Translations under genes and position numbers: made by a program
Notes under the pieces: model-generated
What the model was told of the DNA's origin: nothing
The model's database searches: none
Seen by the model: only the letters and a program-made list of their open reading frames with translations
In this document: piece by piece, positions 10,025 to 31,325 of the stretch
Layout: every line of letters begins with the position of its first letter
Position numbering within the stretch: position 1 is the stretch's first letter
Source: Candidatus Omnitrophota bacterium
Lineage (GTDB): Bacteria; NPL-UPA2; BS750m-G34
DNA length: 34,244 bases
Assembly (NCBI GenBank): GCA_016783345.1
Contig: JADHWT010000002.1
Coordinates: 1 to 34,244 of the forward strand
Direction: 5' to 3'

Positions 10025-10031
10025 TAAAGTG

Positions 10032-10180
10032 TTCTTCAGGGCAGGGTGAAATTCCCGACCGGCGGTAAAAGCCCGCCAGCCCCGAACCAGATTTGGTTCA
10101 GGGCAGACCCGTTGGAATTACGGGGCCGACAGTAAGCCCCCGCATCAGTAAAGGGGGATAAAGTCTGGATGAAAGAAGAA
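10032..10180 (+). ncRNA. FMN riboswitch (RFN element) aptamer
   Basis: P1 TTCTTC (10032-10037) pairs with GAAGAA (10175-10180). Conserved cores are present: AGGGCAGGGTGAAATTCCCGACCGGCGGTAAAAGCCCGC ... GGAATTACGGGGCCGACAGTAA ... AAAGTCTGGATGAAAGAAGA. Lies upstream of ribE. Confidence 0.9.
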
Positions 10181-10194
10181 AGAATAGAATTCTG

Positions 10195-10220
10195 CCCGAA
10201 GATAACCTTCGGGTTTTTTT
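10195..10220 (+). terminator. intrinsic terminator (expression platform of the FMN riboswitch)
   Basis: CCCGAAG (10195-10201), loop ATAAC, CTTCGGG (10207-10213), then T7 (10214-10220). Confidence 0.75.
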
Positions 10221-12039: not shown

Positions 12040-12059
12040 TGTATAGTGAATGGTAGATG

Positions 12060-12155
12060 TCCCTTGTCGCAGAAGATGTTGCGACTTCGGGATCAATTCG
12101 ACCATACAATTTATGTACACGTTGTTTCATAAATTGTGGTCTCATTGAAAGGAGG
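12060..12155 (+). promoter_or_regulatory. repeated two-hairpin leader element, copy 1 (short variant), ending in the ribH SD
   Basis: TCCCTTGTCGCAGAAGATGTTGCGACTTCGGGATCAATTCGACCATACAATTTATG...CATAAATTGTGGTCTCATTGAAAGGAGG. Shares its core with copies at 17502, 26491 and 29908. Confidence 0.85.
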
Positions 12156-12159
12156 ACGT

Positions 12160-12630
12160 ATGGTAAAGGTTATAGAAGGAGAATTGGTAGTCAAGGGAAA
12201 GAGGTTCGGCTTAGTGCTCAGTCGCTTCAATGATTTTATTACCCAGCGGCTCAAGGATGGCGCAGTGGACACACTGCTCCGGCATGGGGTAAAAGATGGA
12301 GAGATTGAGATGGCCTGGGTTCCGGGTTCGTTTGAGATACCGGCTATAGCATTAAAAATGGCCAGGACCGGTCGCTATGATGCTATACTATGTCTCGGGT
12401 GTGTGATCAGAGGTGATACCCCGCATTTTGATTATATAGCGTCAGAGGTAGCTAAAGGCATAGCCCAGATTAACCTCACAACCCCTATCCCTGCTATATT
12501 CGGAATCATCACCGCTGATACTATTGAGCAGGCTGTGGAGAGGGCCGGGACCAAGGCAGGAAATAAAGGCAGGGACGCCGCCCTTTCTGCTATAGAGATG
12601 GTGAATTTGTATAGCAAGATTAAAAAATAG
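12160..12630 (+). CDS. ribH: 6,7-dimethyl-8-ribityllumazine synthase
   Basis: [14 protein letters not shown] motif. I place the start at ATG 12160 (MVKVIEG...), 4 nt after AAGGAGG. The ORF-track GTG at 12136 lies inside the conserved hairpin of the repeat. Confidence 0.92.
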
Positions 12631-14479: not shown

Positions 14480-14647
14480 TTCCCCAATTTCAATCCCCAA
14501 AACGTCGGTAAAATTTTTTATGTGCATCTTGAGACCATGGACCCGCGTTTCTCATTTTTCACCATAAAAGATTTTAATTGTTTTGAGAACAAAATTATGA
14601 TAAGATTATAAGTATATTATGAGGTTATTGTGGCTAGAGAATAGAGA

Positions 14648-14962
14648 ATGATAGATAAAATTCGACAAGCTTTTAGAGAAAGACGATATGAATATAGTTT
14701 ACACGCTGTTGACCAAAGCATTTTGCGCTATATCCTTAGCAAGGAAGTTGAGGAAGTGATTGATAATGGGGAGATAATAGAAGATTATCCTGAAGATAAA
14801 TATGGTTCTAGTTGTTTAATTTATGGAACAACTATTCAAGGCAGGTCTTTACATATTCAATGTTCATATCCTTCAAGGCCGAAAATAAAGATTATTACAT
14901 TGTATCAACCAGATCCAAAAGATTGGATAGACTATAAGAAGAGGAGGGAAGAGAAAAAATGA
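14648..14962 (+). CDS. DUF4258-family putative toxin
   Basis: 104 aa. The YSLHAVDQ...R.I...EVEEVIDNGEIIEDYPEDKYG.SCLIYG...GR.LHI pattern is typical of DUF4258. ATGA overlap with the following zinc-finger gene. Confidence 0.72.
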   Translation: MIDKIRQAFRERRYEYSLHAVDQSILRYILSKEVEEVIDNGEIIEDYPEDKYGSSCLIYGTTIQGRSLHIQCSYPSRPKIKIITLYQPDPKDWIDYKKRREEKK

Positions 14963-15186
14963 AGTGTGATCTTTGCGGAGGAAGAGTAAGCGAAGAGAAA
15001 ATCAGTTATACTCTATTCTATGAAGGGCATTGGATTATTGTAGAAAATGTCCCAGCTAAAGTCTGTAATCAATGTGGTGAAAAGCTATTTGACGCGGATA
15101 CAGTAGATCGCCTTCAGGCTACTATTTGGAAAAAGCAAAAACCCGAAAGAAAAATAGAAACACCGGTCTTTAATCTTGCTCATTAG
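14959..15186 (+). CDS. YgiT/MqsA-type zinc-finger putative antitoxin
   Basis: 75 aa with CDLCGG ... VCNQCGE (a CxxC...CxxC zinc ribbon), as in the MqsA N-terminal domain family. Translationally coupled to the upstream ORF. Confidence 0.72.
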   Translation: MKCDLCGGRVSEEKISYTLFYEGHWIIVENVPAKVCNQCGEKLFDADTVDRLQATIWKKQKPERKIETPVFNLAH

Positions 15187-15200
15187 TGAAGAAGAAACTT

Positions 15201-15238
15201 TTTTGCTTTTTTCGTTCCTTAAAATCAAGCAAAATTTT
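15201..15238 (+). terminator. weak AT-rich hairpin + T-run after the TA pair
   Basis: TTTTGCTT (15201-15208) pairs with AAGCAAAA (15227-15234), followed by TTTTA. The loop is long and the stem AT-rich. Confidence 0.25.
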
Positions 15239-15336
15239 ATAGCTGAGGTCAGACTTTTTTCCATACCCCTATACCACCATAAACGATACAATTCTCAACG
15301 ACACCTGCCATGGTGTCAGAACACTCTAAATTTTTT

Positions 15337-16956: not shown

Positions 16957-17495
16957 TTTTTATTTTAGGCGGGGCAAGGAGCGGGAAAAGTTCCTTCGCC
17001 TGTAAATTAGCAGAAGACATGTGCCCTTCAATGGGGGATGTAGTTTATCTGGCTACGGCTGAGGTGACTGATGATGAGATGGCTCGCCGTATTGCCCGGC
17101 ATAAGGCCCGGAGGCCTTCCCATTGGCAGACTATAGAAGAGCCGCGCAATTTGGCAAGGATAACTAAAATACTTGGAGAGACAGAAAAAGTAGTCTTACT
17201 TGATTGTTTGACTATACTTTTATCAAATATAATATTAAGCGAAGTAAAGGATCAAAAAGACTTATATAAGCATGAAGAAAGATTAGTCAAAAGTTTTTCT
17301 TCTCTTGCTGAGGCAGCAGCGAAAAGCGCTTTTCCTGTGATTTTTGTATCTAATGAAGTTGGCATGGGGATATGTCCGGAAAATTATCTGGGGAGGGTCT
17401 TTAGAGATCTTGTAGGGCGAATAAATCAGGAGATATCAAGAAAGGCTGCGGAAGTATATTTTCTCCGCGCAGGGATTCCGCAGAAGATAAAATAA
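16944..17495 (+). CDS. cobU: bifunctional adenosylcobinamide kinase / adenosylcobinamide-phosphate guanylyltransferase
   Basis: P-loop ILGGARSGKSSFA, size 183 aa, and the C-terminal VSNEVGMGI motif typical of CobU/CobP. Confidence 0.85.
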   Translation: MAKLIFILGGARSGKSSFACKLAEDMCPSMGDVVYLATAEVTDDEMARRIARHKARRPSHWQTIEEPRNLARITKILGETEKVVLLDCLTILLSNIILSEVKDQKDLYKHEERLVKSFSSLAEAAAKSAFPVIFVSNEVGMGICPENYLGRVFRDLVGRINQEISRKAAEVYFLRAGIPQKIK

Positions 17496-17501
17496 GGTAT
17501 G

Positions 17502-17638
17502 TCCCTTGTCGCAGAAGATGTTGAGTAAAATGTTTTCAACTTTTTACTCAACGCGACTTCGGGATTAATTCGACCATACAATTTATGTTCACCTGCCGCT
17601 TTGCGGCGGTTTCATAAATTGTGGTCTCATTAAGGAGG
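17502..17638 (+). promoter_or_regulatory. repeated two-hairpin leader element, copy 2 (longest variant), ending in the SDR gene SD
   Basis: Same core as the other copies. The HP1 extension is GTTGAGTAAAA/TTTTACTCAAC. The HP2 tip is expanded by CTGCCGC-TTT-GCGGCGG. Confidence 0.85.
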
Positions 17639-19668: not shown

Positions 19669-19709
19669 CTTGATTATATAGGAAAGTATATAAAGTGGAC
19701 TTAAGCTAT
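19669..19709 (+). repeat. 41-nt repeat, copy A (37/41 identical to 26001-26041)
   Basis: CTTGATTATATAGGAAAGTATATAAAGTGGACTTAAGCTAT versus CTTGATTGTATAGGAAAGGATAGAAAGTGGACTTGAGCTAT. Confidence 0.85.
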
Positions 19710-26000: not shown

Positions 26001-26041
26001 CTTGATTGTATAGGAAAGGATAGAAAGTGGACTTGAGCTAT
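26001..26041 (+). repeat. 41-nt repeat, copy B (covers the RBS, GTG start and first 5 codons of the RsbW-like gene)
   Basis: 37/41 identical to 19669-19709. Confidence 0.85.
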
Positions 26042-26449: not shown

Positions 26450-26490
26450 GTAGTAAGTAATAAGTTATAAAAGCTTACTATAATGGAGTA

Positions 26491-26607
26491 TCCCTTGTCG
26501 CAGAAGATGTTGAGTAAAATTTCTTCGATTTTTTACTCAACGCGACTTCGGGATTAATTCGAGCATACACTTTATGAAACATAAAGTGCGCTCTCATTAA
26601 AAGGAGG
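26491..26607 (+). promoter_or_regulatory. repeated two-hairpin leader element, copy 3 (covarying variant), ending in the STAS gene SD
   Basis: Same HP1 as copy 4. HP2 carries two compensated base-pair swaps and an AAA tip. A TATAAT at 26479-26484 ends 6 nt upstream. Confidence 0.85.
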
Positions 26608-28735: not shown

Positions 28736-29866
28736 ATGAGGCCTATAATTTGTGACCATGGGTTAATGCGCAGGATTAACCGTGTAAGGATCCTTAACCT
28801 GCTTCGCTTACGGGACTCACTTTCACGTATTGAACTGACCCGGGAGACCGGGCTTGACGGGAAGACTGTGACAAACCTTACCCAGGAGTTATTGGCTAAG
28901 AGGTTAATAATTTCAGATGGATATGAAACCTCAAGCGGCGGAAGGAGACCGGAATTATTAAGGCTAAATAGCAATCTAAAACATACCATCGGGATTTATC
29001 TGGACCCGGATAAAATTATCGGGGTCCTGGTTGATTTAAGAGGAAATATTCTAAAAGAAGAAATTTTTTCTTTATTTAAAATCTCCAAAAGAAAATATAT
29101 CTTGTCAGGCATTAAAAAAATTACGCAATCTCTAATAGCTTGTACCACCCGCTCCAGGCTCCTCGGCTTGGGATTTGTGTTTCCCGGGATAATCGATAGG
29201 GATAAGGAGACTATTATTCAGTCTTCAAATCTACCTGTTCTTGAAGGGATAAGGATAAAAGAGTATTTTAGAAAAAATTTTTCATTACCTATAGAGATAG
29301 AAGACTCCTCCCGGGCAATGGCATTGGGAGAGAAATGGTTTGGCAGGGCTCAAGGCATAGACAATTTCGTGTTTATAGAGCTGGGTGTAGGAATTGGCTG
29401 TGCAATACTTAGTAGAAGTCAGCTTCATTATGGGGTGAGTCTCAGTGCAGGAGAGCTCGGCCATACTGTGGTAGATATAAATGGACCCCGTTGCAGATGC
29501 GGGCATAAAGGGTGCCTTGAGACAGTAGCCTCTAGCAGGAAGATACTGGAAAAGATATCCGGAAAGGGCAGGAAGGAGGCACAGAAGATTATTGCAGATG
29601 CAGGGTATTATATTGGTGTAGGAGTGAGCAACCTTGTCAACCTCTTAAATCCTTCCCATCTTATTATAGGTGGGATAGGTGGGGAGCTAAGTCTGGTAGG
29701 AGAAACTTTATTTAAGGCTATAGATAGAGCTATGAAAAAATATACTGTATCTTCATCATATAATGCGGTTCAGGTTATCCCGGCAGCCCTTGGAGAGAAA
29801 GGAGGTGCATTAGGCGCAGCTACACTTATTTTAAAAAAGGTATTTGAGTTAAAAGAATTGGAGTAA
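28736..29866 (+). CDS. ROK family transcriptional regulator (NagC/XylR-like)
   Basis: N-terminal wHTH (RINRVRILNLLR....SRIELTRETGLDGKTVTNLTQEL). ROK zinc motif GHTVVD..GP.CRCGHKGCLE. No obvious SD, so the start is uncertain. Confidence 0.85.
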   Translation: MRPIICDHGLMRRINRVRILNLLRLRDSLSRIELTRETGLDGKTVTNLTQELLAKRLIISDGYETSSGGRRPELLRLNSNLKHTIGIYLDPDKIIGVLVDLRGNILKEEIFSLFKISKRKYILSGIKKITQSLIACTTRSRLLGLGFVFPGIIDRDKETIIQSSNLPVLEGIRIKEYFRKNFSLPIEIEDSSRAMALGEKWFGRAQGIDNFVFIELGVGIGCAILSRSQLHYGVSLSAGELGHTVVDINGPRCRCGHKGCLETVASSRKILEKISGKGRKEAQKIIADAGYYIGVGVSNLVNLLNPSHLIIGGIGGELSLVGETLFKAIDRAMKKYTVSSSYNAVQVIPAALGEKGGALGAATLILKKVFELKELE

Positions 29867-29872
29867 TGGTAG

Positions 29873-29898
29873 CCGCAGGCTTTAGCCTGCGGTAATTT
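29873..29898 (+). terminator. hairpin terminator candidate after the ROK gene
   Basis: CCGCAGGC (29873-29880), loop TTTA, GCCTGCGG (29885-29892), then TAATTT (poor T-run). Confidence 0.5.
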
Positions 29899-29907
29899 AA
29901 AGGAGTA

Positions 29908-30032
29908 TCCCTTGTCGCAGAAGATGTTGAGTAAAATTTCTTCGATTTTTTACTCAACGCGACTTCGGGATTAATTCGACCATACAATTTATGTGCACGT
30001 TGTTTCATAAATTGTGGTCTCATTAAAAGGAG
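29908..30032 (+). promoter_or_regulatory. repeated two-hairpin leader element, copy 4 (canonical), ending in the DegT gene SD
   Basis: TCCCTTGTCGCAGAAGATGTTGAGTAAAATTTCTTCGATTTTTTACTCAACGCGACTTCGGGATTAATTCGACCATACAATTTATGTGCACGTTGTTTCATAAATTGTGGTCTCATTAAAAGGAG. Confidence 0.85.
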
Positions 30033-30038
30033 AAAATA

Positions 30039-31325
30039 ATGGTAAAAGAAAAATTAGCTATAGAAGGCGGTAAGGCAGTAGGAGAAGGCGTAACCTTTCC
30101 AGGCTGGCCTAATTTTACAGATGAGATTATAAACGCAGCAATGGAACCTCTTCGCACTGGCAAGGTCAATTACTGGACAGGTAAAAACGGTCAGGAATTT
30201 GAAAAAAAATTTGCTGAATGGAATGGTTCAAAATATGCCATCTCTACAACCAATGGCACCAGTGCCCTGCATGTGGCTCTGGCAGGACTTGAGATTGGGC
30301 CAGGGGATGAAGTAATTGTTCCTTCCTATACATTTATCGCTTCATCTTTTTGTGTGCTTCAGGCAGGTGCTATTCCTGTATTCGCAGATGTGGATGACAA
30401 AAAGACCCACTGTATATCTCCCAGGGATATTGAAGCAAAGATCACTAATAAAACAAAGGCCATTATCCCGGTGCACCTTTATGGCAATGTCTGTGACATG
30501 GATGAAATATTAGCTATTGCTAAAAAACACAATCTCTATGTCATAGAAGACTGCGCTGAGACGCACGGCGGTACATATAAAGGAAAGAAGGTAGGCACTA
30601 TGGGAGATGCAGGTGCTTTTAGTTTCTGTCAGTCTAAGTCATTTACAACTGGCGGTGAAGGAGGAATGGTCACAACTGACAATGAGGAAGTAATGTGGAG
30701 GTGTAAGTCTTTCCGTGACCATGGGTACGATGTCTCCAAGCGACTTAGTCTGATGGAATTAGAAGGAAAGCTTCCATATATACATAATATAGTTGGTTTT
30801 AATTACCGCATGACTGAAATGCAGTCAGCAATAGGGATAGCAGAACTTAAGAGATTTGATTCCTGGAACTTGCCCCGCAGGCAGAAAAATGGATCTGTAC
30901 TTATAGAAGAGCTAAAGGATTGTCCTTTAGTCATTGGCCTTCCTATTCACAACCAGGACAACAAGACAAATGGTTTCTTTGTTTTTCCTATTGTTGTGGA
31001 TATTGATAAATTTAATGTAGATATTGGTAAGTTGCGTGATACAATTGATGCTGAGAAGGTTCCTGTATGGAGATGCTTCTGGCCACAGTGTTATAAAGAA
31101 AAGGCCTTTCAGGAACACAATGGCTTTGGCAGGGCAAAGTTTCCTTTTAAGTCAAAGGAGTATACAAACCCTGCTTCTGTAAAGTATAATGAGGTTCAAT
31201 GCCCGAATTCTGCATGGCTTGAGGCGCGGACATTTATAACCTTGTGCCACCCCATGCTTGAGGAGAATCATATGCGACTAATTGCCAGGGCTATCAAAAA
31301 GGTAGTTTTAGGTCTGGTGAAATAA
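30039..31325 (+). CDS. DegT/DnrJ/EryC1/StrS family PLP-dependent aminotransferase
   Basis: NGTSALHVAL, IPVHLYG, the FSFCQSKSFTTGGEGG (Schiff-base Lys) pattern, and NYRMTEMQSAIG. Confidence 0.9.
   Translation: MVKEKLAIEGGKAVGEGVTFPGWPNFTDEIINAAMEPLRTGKVNYWTGKNGQEFEKKFAEWNGSKYAISTTNGTSALHVALAGLEIGPGDEVIVPSYTFIASSFCVLQAGAIPVFADVDDKKTHCISPRDIEAKITNKTKAIIPVHLYGNVCDMDEILAIAKKHNLYVIEDCAETHGGTYKGKKVGTMGDAGAFSFCQSKSFTTGGEGGMVTTDNEEVMWRCKSFRDHGYDVSKRLSLMELEGKLPYIHNIVGFNYRMTEMQSAIGIAELKRFDSWNLPRRQKNGSVLIEELKDCPLVIGLPIHNQDNKTNGFFVFPIVVDIDKFNVDIGKLRDTIDAEKVPVWRCFWPQCYKEKAFQEHNGFGRAKFPFKSKEYTNPASVKYNEVQCPNSAWLEARTFITLCHPMLEENHMRLIARAIKKVVLGLVK

Follow-up and report, generated by a model that had tools for sequence, protein, structure and literature searches.

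We analysed a 34,244-nucleotide (nt) stretch of DNA from Candidatus Omnitrophota bacterium (assembly GCA_016783345.1, contig JADHWT010000002.1, positions 1 to 34,244; hereafter the window), which carries four copies of a two-hairpin repeat named here E. In our judgement E is probably a young, lineage-restricted, non-autonomous interspersed repeat that has been copied into new sites of one species-level clade of Omnitrophota, with the Shine-Dalgarno (SD) sequence directing the copying. E is polymorphic for insertion, abuts the SD of the downstream gene in the orientation of that gene, and is bracketed by SD-like direct repeats; its copies are mosaic, and both its structure and its loops are conserved. 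The copies in the window are called c1 to c4, and L-numbers denote loci elsewhere.

Copies of E and their placement

E is roughly 90-140 bases long. Two core 21-mers, CCCTTGTCGCAGAAGATGTTG and GCGACTTCGGGATTAATTCGA, occur four times each in the window and on the + strand only, and none is expected in shuffled sequence. This bears out the initial annotation, which had described four + strand intergenic copies ending on an SD 4-6 nt before an ATG. Each window copy fills the gap between co-directional + strand open reading frames (ORFs), and at its 3′ end reads CTCATT(A/G)A followed by AAGGAG(G), 4-6 locus-specific bases and ATG.

The four copies, all on the + strand, differ in length and in the make-up of their two hairpins, HP1 and HP2. 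c1 (12060-12146; 95.8 bits with the covariance model described below) lies between ribBA and ribH and has a short HP1 and variant A of HP2. It is flanked on the left by AATGGTAGATG (12049-12059) and on the right by GAAAGGAGG (12147-12155), and the ATG of ribH follows at 12160. c2 (17502-17631; 126 bits), between cobU and an SDR gene, has a long HP1 and an HP2 of variant A with an extra tip hairpin; this GC-rich nested hairpin (CTGCCGC-TTT-GCGGCGG, 17593-17609), identified by alignment and folding, is found in c2 only. A direct repeat, TAAGG, flanks c2 at 17493-17497 and 17630-17634, the T of the second copy being the last core base (17630-17631). Next come the SD, AAGGAGG (17632-17638), and the ATG of the SDR gene (17645). 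c3 (26491-26598; 140.6 bits), with a long HP1 and HP2 variant B, separates the gene for an RsbW-like kinase (HATPase_c_2) from a STAS gene; to its right are AAAAGGAGG (26599-26607) and the STAS ATG (26612). c4 (29908-30024; 135 bits) lies between genes for a ROK protein and a DegT-type aminotransferase, and combines a long HP1, the same as that of c3, with HP2 variant A. AAAGGAG is found on both sides of c4, at 29898-29904 and again at 30026-30032, and the aminotransferase ATG is at 30039.

Further copies were sought with the invariant 21-mer in the GTDB representative genomes and in JGI metagenomes, by an exact-word scan that takes no account of position. These two large public collections yielded four further copies only. 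Three (L001-L003) came from the GTDB set, all of them in Candidatus Omnitrophota bacterium CSMAG_2088, whose DNA is ~91-95% identical to the window where the two overlap. The metagenomes gave one true copy (L005) and one candidate (L004) that we rejected as a chance 21-mer match within high-GC coding DNA. All four additional copies are gene-oriented and have their 3′ end on AAGGAG(G), 5-8 nt ahead of a start codon. The genes downstream encode a cold-shock protein, a 117-aa protein of unknown function, a NagB-like deaminase and FabZ. Two of the four sit behind a neighbour transcribed divergently, which is a tRNA gene at one locus and pta at the other, so E is not confined to operon interiors. 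Placement and orientation relative to the downstream gene are shared by all eight independent loci. An assembly artefact is excluded, since copies are found in independent assemblies from several studies and vary in sequence. A scan of viral contigs for a mid-element word produced no matches, and the translated reverse strand of E, used as a protein query, matched nothing but the c4 locus of a sister assembly.

Filled and empty sites in relatives

Orthologous regions were compared in relatives graded by RibBA and PilB identity. The cleanest filled/empty pair is provided by the cobU-SDR junction. In L010 (an 87% relative) this junction is empty and reads ATAAAATAAGGAGGTAATTTATG, and in the window it reads ATAAAATAAGG[TATGTCCC...CTCATTAAGG]AGGTAATTTATG, with TAAGG on both sides. 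The c2 insert lies inside the host's own SD, TAAGGAGG, and the cobU stop codon and the SD of the SDR gene are both preserved. A mobile intergenic cassette bringing its own ribosome-binding site had been among the possibilities raised at the outset. Mobility is supported by the presence and absence of E at orthologous junctions, but the second part of that proposal is not established, as the host SD was already in place between cobU and the SDR gene.

The junction between the RsbW-like and STAS genes is empty in four relatives (L018, L019, L020 and L021, at 90, 84, 80 and 77%), and the tRNA-geneX junction is empty in L019 and filled in L002. At ribBA-ribH, E is complete in L014 (97%) and absent from L016 and L009 (84 and 81%). 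In L015 (94%) the 3′ part of HP2 remains at this junction, a deletion having taken all of HP1 and the 5′ foot of HP2. Two other, different hairpin inserts occupy the ribBA-ribH junction in L010 and L017. Because the orthologous junctions of relatives are empty, we regard E as a young inserted repeat and not as an old leader.

A covariance model built from nine sequences recovered the four copies in the 34-kb window and picked up the truncated copy in L015; with this model, ~80 kb of DNA from relatives of ~87% identity or less gave no additional copy. The parsimonious reading of this distribution is that E would have been gained in the common ancestor of a clade of at least ~92% identity, and would then have spread.

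Ends of the element and mosaic copies

The bases that follow the SD differ at each locus, which places the right boundary of E at or inside the SD. The right flank is invariably (A)AAGGAG(G). On the left, E is invariant from TCCC inward; the preceding 8-10 bases are variable and always comprise an SD-like purine motif and then TA(T)(G). The left motif is ATGGTG in L002 and L003, ATGGAG in c3, AAAGGAG in c4, TAAGG in c2, ATGGTAG in c1, ATGAAG in L001 and GTGAAG in L005. It repeats the right motif exactly in c2 (5 nt) and c4 (7 nt), and imperfect SD-like repeats are present at the other loci. The TAAGG on both sides of c2 could be either a duplication or a pair of identical left and right cleavage sites. 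The hairpins begin 0-4 nt from the left end and finish 2-3 nt short of the SD. When the left end was locally aligned with the reverse complement of the right end, the scores were 4-6, compared with a null mean of ~5, in agreement with the earlier observation that E lacks terminal inverted repeats.

The copies are mosaic. c3 and c4 share the left end and HP1, including its loop, and differ in HP2; L001, in another genome, bears the HP2 of c3. Some copies contain the inner helix of HP1 and others lack it, as a single block of 30 nt. In L002 there is a sequence, GAAGTCGTAAATGG, that agrees with the end of the gene preceding c3; the left flank of L002, GAAGTCGTAAATGGTGTATG, matches that gene end plus the c3 left motif if a 33-nt hairpin is taken out of c3. 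This match points to a few bases of flank having moved together with E.

A further small hairpin stands directly 5′ of the element in both c3 and c4. The sequence before c3 (26450-26490, + strand) consists of GTAG, a hairpin TAGTAAG..CTTACTA and then TAATGGAGTA, and is missing from empty sites. The GTAG-footed hairpin before c4, designated H (29865-29892, + strand), lies between the stop codon and AAAGGAG and has the form AATGGTAG + CCGCAGGC-TTTA-GCCTGCGG. An H-like hairpin, AATGGTAG + (C/T)CGCAGGC..GCCTGCGG, is located at the ribBA-ribH junction of L010 (4804-4848) and occurs also in L011-L013, and c1 in the window stands behind the same AATGGTAG. At 3590-3675 of L017 (GCA_964435555.1) there is an unrelated hairpin insert of ~75 nt, GGAATC..GCATGCAGATATAAT..ATTATATCATGC..GATTCC, just before AAAGAAAGGAGG. 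With E, the H-like hairpin and the L017 insert, one ribBA-ribH junction thus has three different inserts in three lineages.

L002 (4351-4626) and L005 (1066-1310) contain the same divergent tRNA gene, promoter and copy of E, followed by the gene for the 117-aa protein in L002 and by fabZ in L005. This arrangement suggests a rearrangement with a breakpoint at E. The upstream module shared by the two loci was considered as part of E and rejected, as it corresponds to the divergent tRNA gene and its promoter.

Structure and covariation

In c4, HP1 (29908-29970, + strand) is made up of stems UCCC/GGGA and GUCGC/GCGAC and an optional inner module, GUUGAGUAAAA/UUUUACUCAAC. Its AGAAGAU bulge and UU/UUC loop are invariant, with no variable position among 30 outer columns. 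HP2 (29971-30026, + strand) has stems UUAAU/AUUAA, GACC/GGUC and CAAUUUAUG/CAUAAAUUG, with invariant UC/UC and AUA/U loops. The two-hairpin fold proposed in the initial annotation is the minimum-free-energy (MFE) structure of c2, c3 and c4, with z-scores of -4.6 to -6.7. The MFE structure of c1, which has the short HP1, deviates from it and pairs the 5′ UCCCUU with the SD instead. The reverse strand folds as well (z -5.9), and the fold alone therefore does not pick the RNA strand.

Covariation was counted against the two-hairpin structure in an alignment of nine sequences. Standard pairs made up 99% of alignment cells, compared with 35-45% when the partners were slid, and the observed covariation score was reached by none of 500 shuffles. 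Seven pairs changed on both sides, six of them in HP2 (including U-A, C-G and U-G at columns 68/134), so the compensatory changes noted previously are genuine, those described for c3 included. Three compensated versions of HP2 occur: A, GACC..CAATTTATG; B, GAGC..CACTTTATG; and C, CGAC..CAAGTTATG. Its closing stem, UUAAU/AUUAA, varies as U-A and C-G, with a U-G intermediate.

Substitutions are confined to the stems of HP2, the tips and the optional HP1 module, and none falls in the 30 HP1 columns that form the outer stems, bulge and loops. Variable columns number 13 of 36 in the HP2 stems versus 1 of 38 in the outer part of HP1 plus the HP2 internal loops (Fisher p = 2e-4), and the sole variable column among those 38 is an internal-loop column. 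To judge from this pattern of substitution, the invariant bases of E are read by something, whereas HP2 needs merely to be a helix. Invariant loops and covarying stems would fit an RNA-binding factor and a hairpin-reading single-strand DNA enzyme equally well. The earlier description of E as a conserved fold rather than a decaying repeat holds in that the fold is kept by compensation, but is too strong: L015 has lost HP1 and the 5′ foot of HP2, and the family is absent from relatives at or below ~87% identity.

With a short upstream context, the predicted probability that the SD is unpaired is 0.7-0.95 in c2, c3 and c4 and 0.3-0.5 in the short copies; these values shift with the amount of upstream sequence included. 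There is no U-run after HP2 that would indicate a terminator. A scan with a consensus promoter found no promoter-like site inside E at any of the four window copies, and the -10-like boxes located 8-14 nt upstream of copies are partly native flank (c2).

Models for the spread of E

The proposal that E is a young, SD-directed mobile repeat supposes that the SD sequence itself guides the copying. Two routes can be envisaged. By the first, a strand-specific single-strand HUH/Y1 transposase of the IS200/IS605 or RAYT type would read the hairpins together with a short target. The TCCCTT at the foot of HP1 is invariant and is complementary to AAGGGA, a suggestive point for this route. By the second, microhomology template switching or recombination would take place between the SD-like ends of the donor and the SD of the recipient, which would explain the variable length of the repeats, the mosaics and the transduced flank. 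Insertion would regenerate an intact SD, predicted to be mostly unpaired. Because the SD is rebuilt, copies in this position and orientation would carry little cost and be tolerated, and those elsewhere would be lost to selection. In mRNA the two stacked hairpins might insulate the SD from upstream sequence or protect 5′ or 3′ ends. Transcribed E is probably neutral, or a mildly useful insulator or end protector, rather than a signal-responsive regulator.

Several points weigh against this proposal. Just eight independent loci are known, and the window genes are all on one strand, so they give no reading of the orientation of E relative to replication. The direct repeats are unequal (5 nt in c2 and 7 nt in c4, the rest being degenerate) and do not readily fit a target-site duplication of fixed length; an apparent target duplication is, moreover, atypical of the IS200/IS605 family, which bears on the first route. 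No transposase or autonomous partner is encoded among the window's 37 housekeeping genes, no genome-wide search having been made. The HP2 remnant in L015 is identical at 52 of 52 positions while its flanks are 92.6% identical, for which the expectation is 0.018. The invariance of every unpaired nucleotide could equally mean selection by an RNA-binding protein. Finally, sites might look empty because E had been excised precisely between its flanking repeats, although gain is the more parsimonious reading of the phylogenetic pattern.

The alternative with the best claim to consideration, although we think it unlikely, is that E is first and foremost an RNA module with a function and owes its spread to its usefulness, either as a leader that docks a protein or the ribosome or as a protector of mRNA ends. 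An RNase, or an RNA-binding factor peculiar to the lineage, would recognise the hairpins and invariant loops. The covariation in HP2 is what such a module would be expected to display, as it includes a U-G intermediate on the + strand, and so is the lack of any change in 30 HP1 columns while the HP2 stems diverged. The strict co-orientation and SD contact at 8/8 loci, the half-element in L015 that is more conserved than its flanks, and the occurrence of copies both within operons and behind promoters are also in its favour. However, relatives at 77-90% identity run the same genes without E at the orthologous junctions, E is partly dispensable at ribH in L015, and whole modules of it come and go. 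The downstream genes are unrelated (ribH, SDR, STAS, DegT aminotransferase, cold-shock protein, NagB and FabZ), and predicted SD accessibility is uneven between copies. The reverse strand also folds equally, and one mismatch in L005 is a wobble on the reverse strand only.

The proposal of SD-directed copying can be extended to a Shine-Dalgarno-homing element, that is, selfish DNA with the ribosome-binding site as its integration site and TCCCTT as its target-pairing guide. We regard this more specific scheme as speculative and rather improbable. TCCCTT, whose complement AAGGGA closely resembles the SD, would pair with the target in the manner of the guide tetranucleotides of IS200/IS605. With the SD rebuilt, the 5′ end of any gene could be colonised cheaply, E would be carried in each invaded mRNA, and the invariant bulge and loops would be recognised by a protein specific to the lineage.

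There is little to recommend E as a coupling cassette of the MIRU type, in which a short ORF running from the left ATG/GTG to the TAA/TGA in CATT[A/G]AA would pass ribosomes downstream. The copies with a short HP1 (c1, L003 and L005) do have a 29-32-codon ORF that ends 2-3 nt before the SD core; in the window it spans 12051-12149, and at the three loci it begins MV[DY][VI]PCRRRCCDFGINS... Long-HP1 copies, however, close the frame after ~10 codons (TGT TGA), the frame used in c3 and L001 is a different one with its end between the two hairpins, c4 is without a start codon, and the left ATG has no SD ahead of it. A conserved small ORF was rejected, the frame being closed or shifted in c2, c3, c4, L001 and L002. 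The A/G in the CATT[A/G]AA stop region also covaries with HP2 column 68.

We give scarcely any credence to a translational switch or RNA thermometer in which the 5′ UCCCUU alternates between GGGA (SD free) and the SD (SD closed): UCCCUU is paired with the SD region in the MFE structure, or in a large share of the ensemble, of the short-HP1 copies c1 and L003, but long-HP1 copies pair C5 with GGGA at P = 0.96-1.0 and leave the SD 0.7-0.95 unpaired, the prediction varies with upstream context, and the c1 pairing relies on the locus-specific spacer ACGU. An SD-sequestering switch as a general property of E was rejected, since the SD is mostly unpaired in the default fold of c2-c4.

Small structured repeats such as REP, BOX, ERIC and miniature inverted-repeat transposable elements (MITEs) are common, and their placement is usually loose. 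A family locked to the ribosome-binding site in one orientation, with SD-like repeats on either side, would, if true, represent either a mobile element for which a universal translation signal serves as landing site or a portable leader that rewires 5′ untranslated regions. Either reading bears on the evolution of operon-internal expression. It also bears on how 'conserved' intergenic structures in metagenome bins are interpreted. Repeats like E could be taken for leaders of the riboswitch kind. They may also be one cause of the short contigs (2-8 kb) of this clade, although the sister contigs that we examined did not end at copies. The Omnitrophota are uncultured, and lineage-specific nucleic-acid machinery within them is unexplored.

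Other features of the window and its relatives

An FMN riboswitch (10028-10184, 100 bits), with a terminator-like hairpin behind it (10194-10214), precedes ribE-ribBA and is conserved in four relatives; the operon that contains c1 is therefore under riboswitch control. Another dispersed repeat, ~41-43 nt long, CTTGATTRTATAGGAAAGKATAKAAAGTGGACTTRAGCTAT, occurs at 19669-19709 and 26001-26041 of the window and at about 104-139 of L001. The copy at 26001 lies within the 5′ end of the RsbW-like gene, at a position where L018 reads MKNGHN-LVKLE. This insert brings an in-frame TAG, an SD-like sequence (GGAAAGGA) and a GTG start whose frame is that of the remainder of the RsbW-like gene.

A toxin-antitoxin-like pair, made up of a DUF4258 protein and an MqsA-like antitoxin, is located between long spacers at 14480-15290 and is absent from the syntenic region of L010. 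The GFO_IDH_MocA and DAP-dehydrogenase-like genes are adjacent in the window (~33693), and in CSMAG_2088 (L002, 5663-7435) a 1.8-kb insertion encoding an LmbE-like deacetylase and a NagB-like gene lies between them.

Comparison with known families

At the gathering score, an Rfam scan of the whole window reported only the FMN riboswitch (10028-10184) and nothing for E, and in a permissive scan of 29860-30060 the best score was 19 bits against a 64-bit threshold. The initial annotation had likewise placed E in no known class. By blastn, E had no match in plasmid or phage collections, nor in 5,426 E. coli genomes, and it is unlike the ERIC, REP and BIME of E. coli in sequence. It was not mentioned in the literature searched in full text, a 2026 survey of complete Omnitrophota genomes included. 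attC-like core sites (GTTGAGT/ACTCAAC) in HP1 were considered and rejected, as their order is wrong and the short copies are without them.

BOX of Streptococcus pneumoniae and ERIC/IRU of enterobacteria are structured, transcribed interspersed repeats. Like E, they are ~100-150 nt long, non-coding and structured, lie in intergenic regions transcribed with their neighbours, are lineage-restricted and have no transposase of their own. BOX shares with E a modular construction with optional internal modules (boxB). In contrast to these families, E is without sequence similarity in E. coli genomes, is not one long palindrome, has a single orientation with its 3′ end on the SD at 8/8 loci, and is bracketed by SD-like direct repeats.

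Correia elements of Neisseria and classical MITEs resemble E in being small, non-autonomous and structured, in lying near gene starts, in being co-transcribed and in their strain-variable presence. E differs from classical MITEs in having no terminal inverted repeats, a flanking repeat apparently of variable length and a single orientation. MIRU of Mycobacterium tuberculosis, like E, is found between operon genes, is oriented with transcription and ends at the translation signals of the next gene. Unlike MIRU, E has no ORF conserved across copies, is not tandem and also occurs behind divergent promoters. Protection of mRNA would be expected from a stable hairpin, or a motif resembling the SD, placed ahead of the true SD, and 5′ stabiliser hairpins and STAB-SD leaders (the ompA 5′ untranslated region, cryIIIA) have the same succession of SD-like motif, structure and SD as E. 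Those are single-gene leaders, whereas E is a dispersed repeat, and the likeness is one of layout.

Enzymes of the IS200/IS605 or RAYT type recognise imperfect end hairpins and a short target, the latter through a guide by the foot of the hairpin (PMC3479197). Palindrome-associated transposable elements (PATE) derived from IS200/IS605, and REP/REPIN mobilised by RAYT Y1 transposases, resemble E in having no terminal inverted repeats and an imperfect hairpin near each end, with conserved mismatches or bulges (for the REP features, PMC3479197), and in strand-specific placement beside a short specific sequence. Recognition of structure over stem sequence would explain both the covariation and the invariant loops of E. 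E has the subterminal hairpins, the lack of terminal inverted repeats and, at 8/8 loci, the single orientation beside AAGG/GGAG that characterise PATE, features that are necessary but not sufficient for membership. E differs from IS200/IS605 in the apparent direct repeat at its flanks, as IS200/IS605 insertions make none, and no gene for a TnpA/RAYT Y1 HUH enzyme was found in the window, no genome-wide search for one having been made.

Hairpins with a GTAG foot, one at 29865 and one in L010, had suggested a REP/RAYT reading. Before the HP1 foot stand TATG, GTA, TATA or ATTG rather than the GTAG of REP, which is present in c1 only, 3 nt away. GTAG followed by a hairpin ranked 63rd of 256 tetranucleotides in DNA of the clade, and for want of enrichment this reading was rejected. 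A REPIN combines two inverted copies of one REP, whereas HP1 and HP2 are unrelated to each other, so that E is not a REPIN; the reverse-strand matches to the model are hairpins matching themselves.

By kind, E belongs with the small structured interspersed repeats, among which it constitutes a new family. It is set apart from the others by its locked position on the ribosome-binding site and by the SD-like repeats that bracket it.

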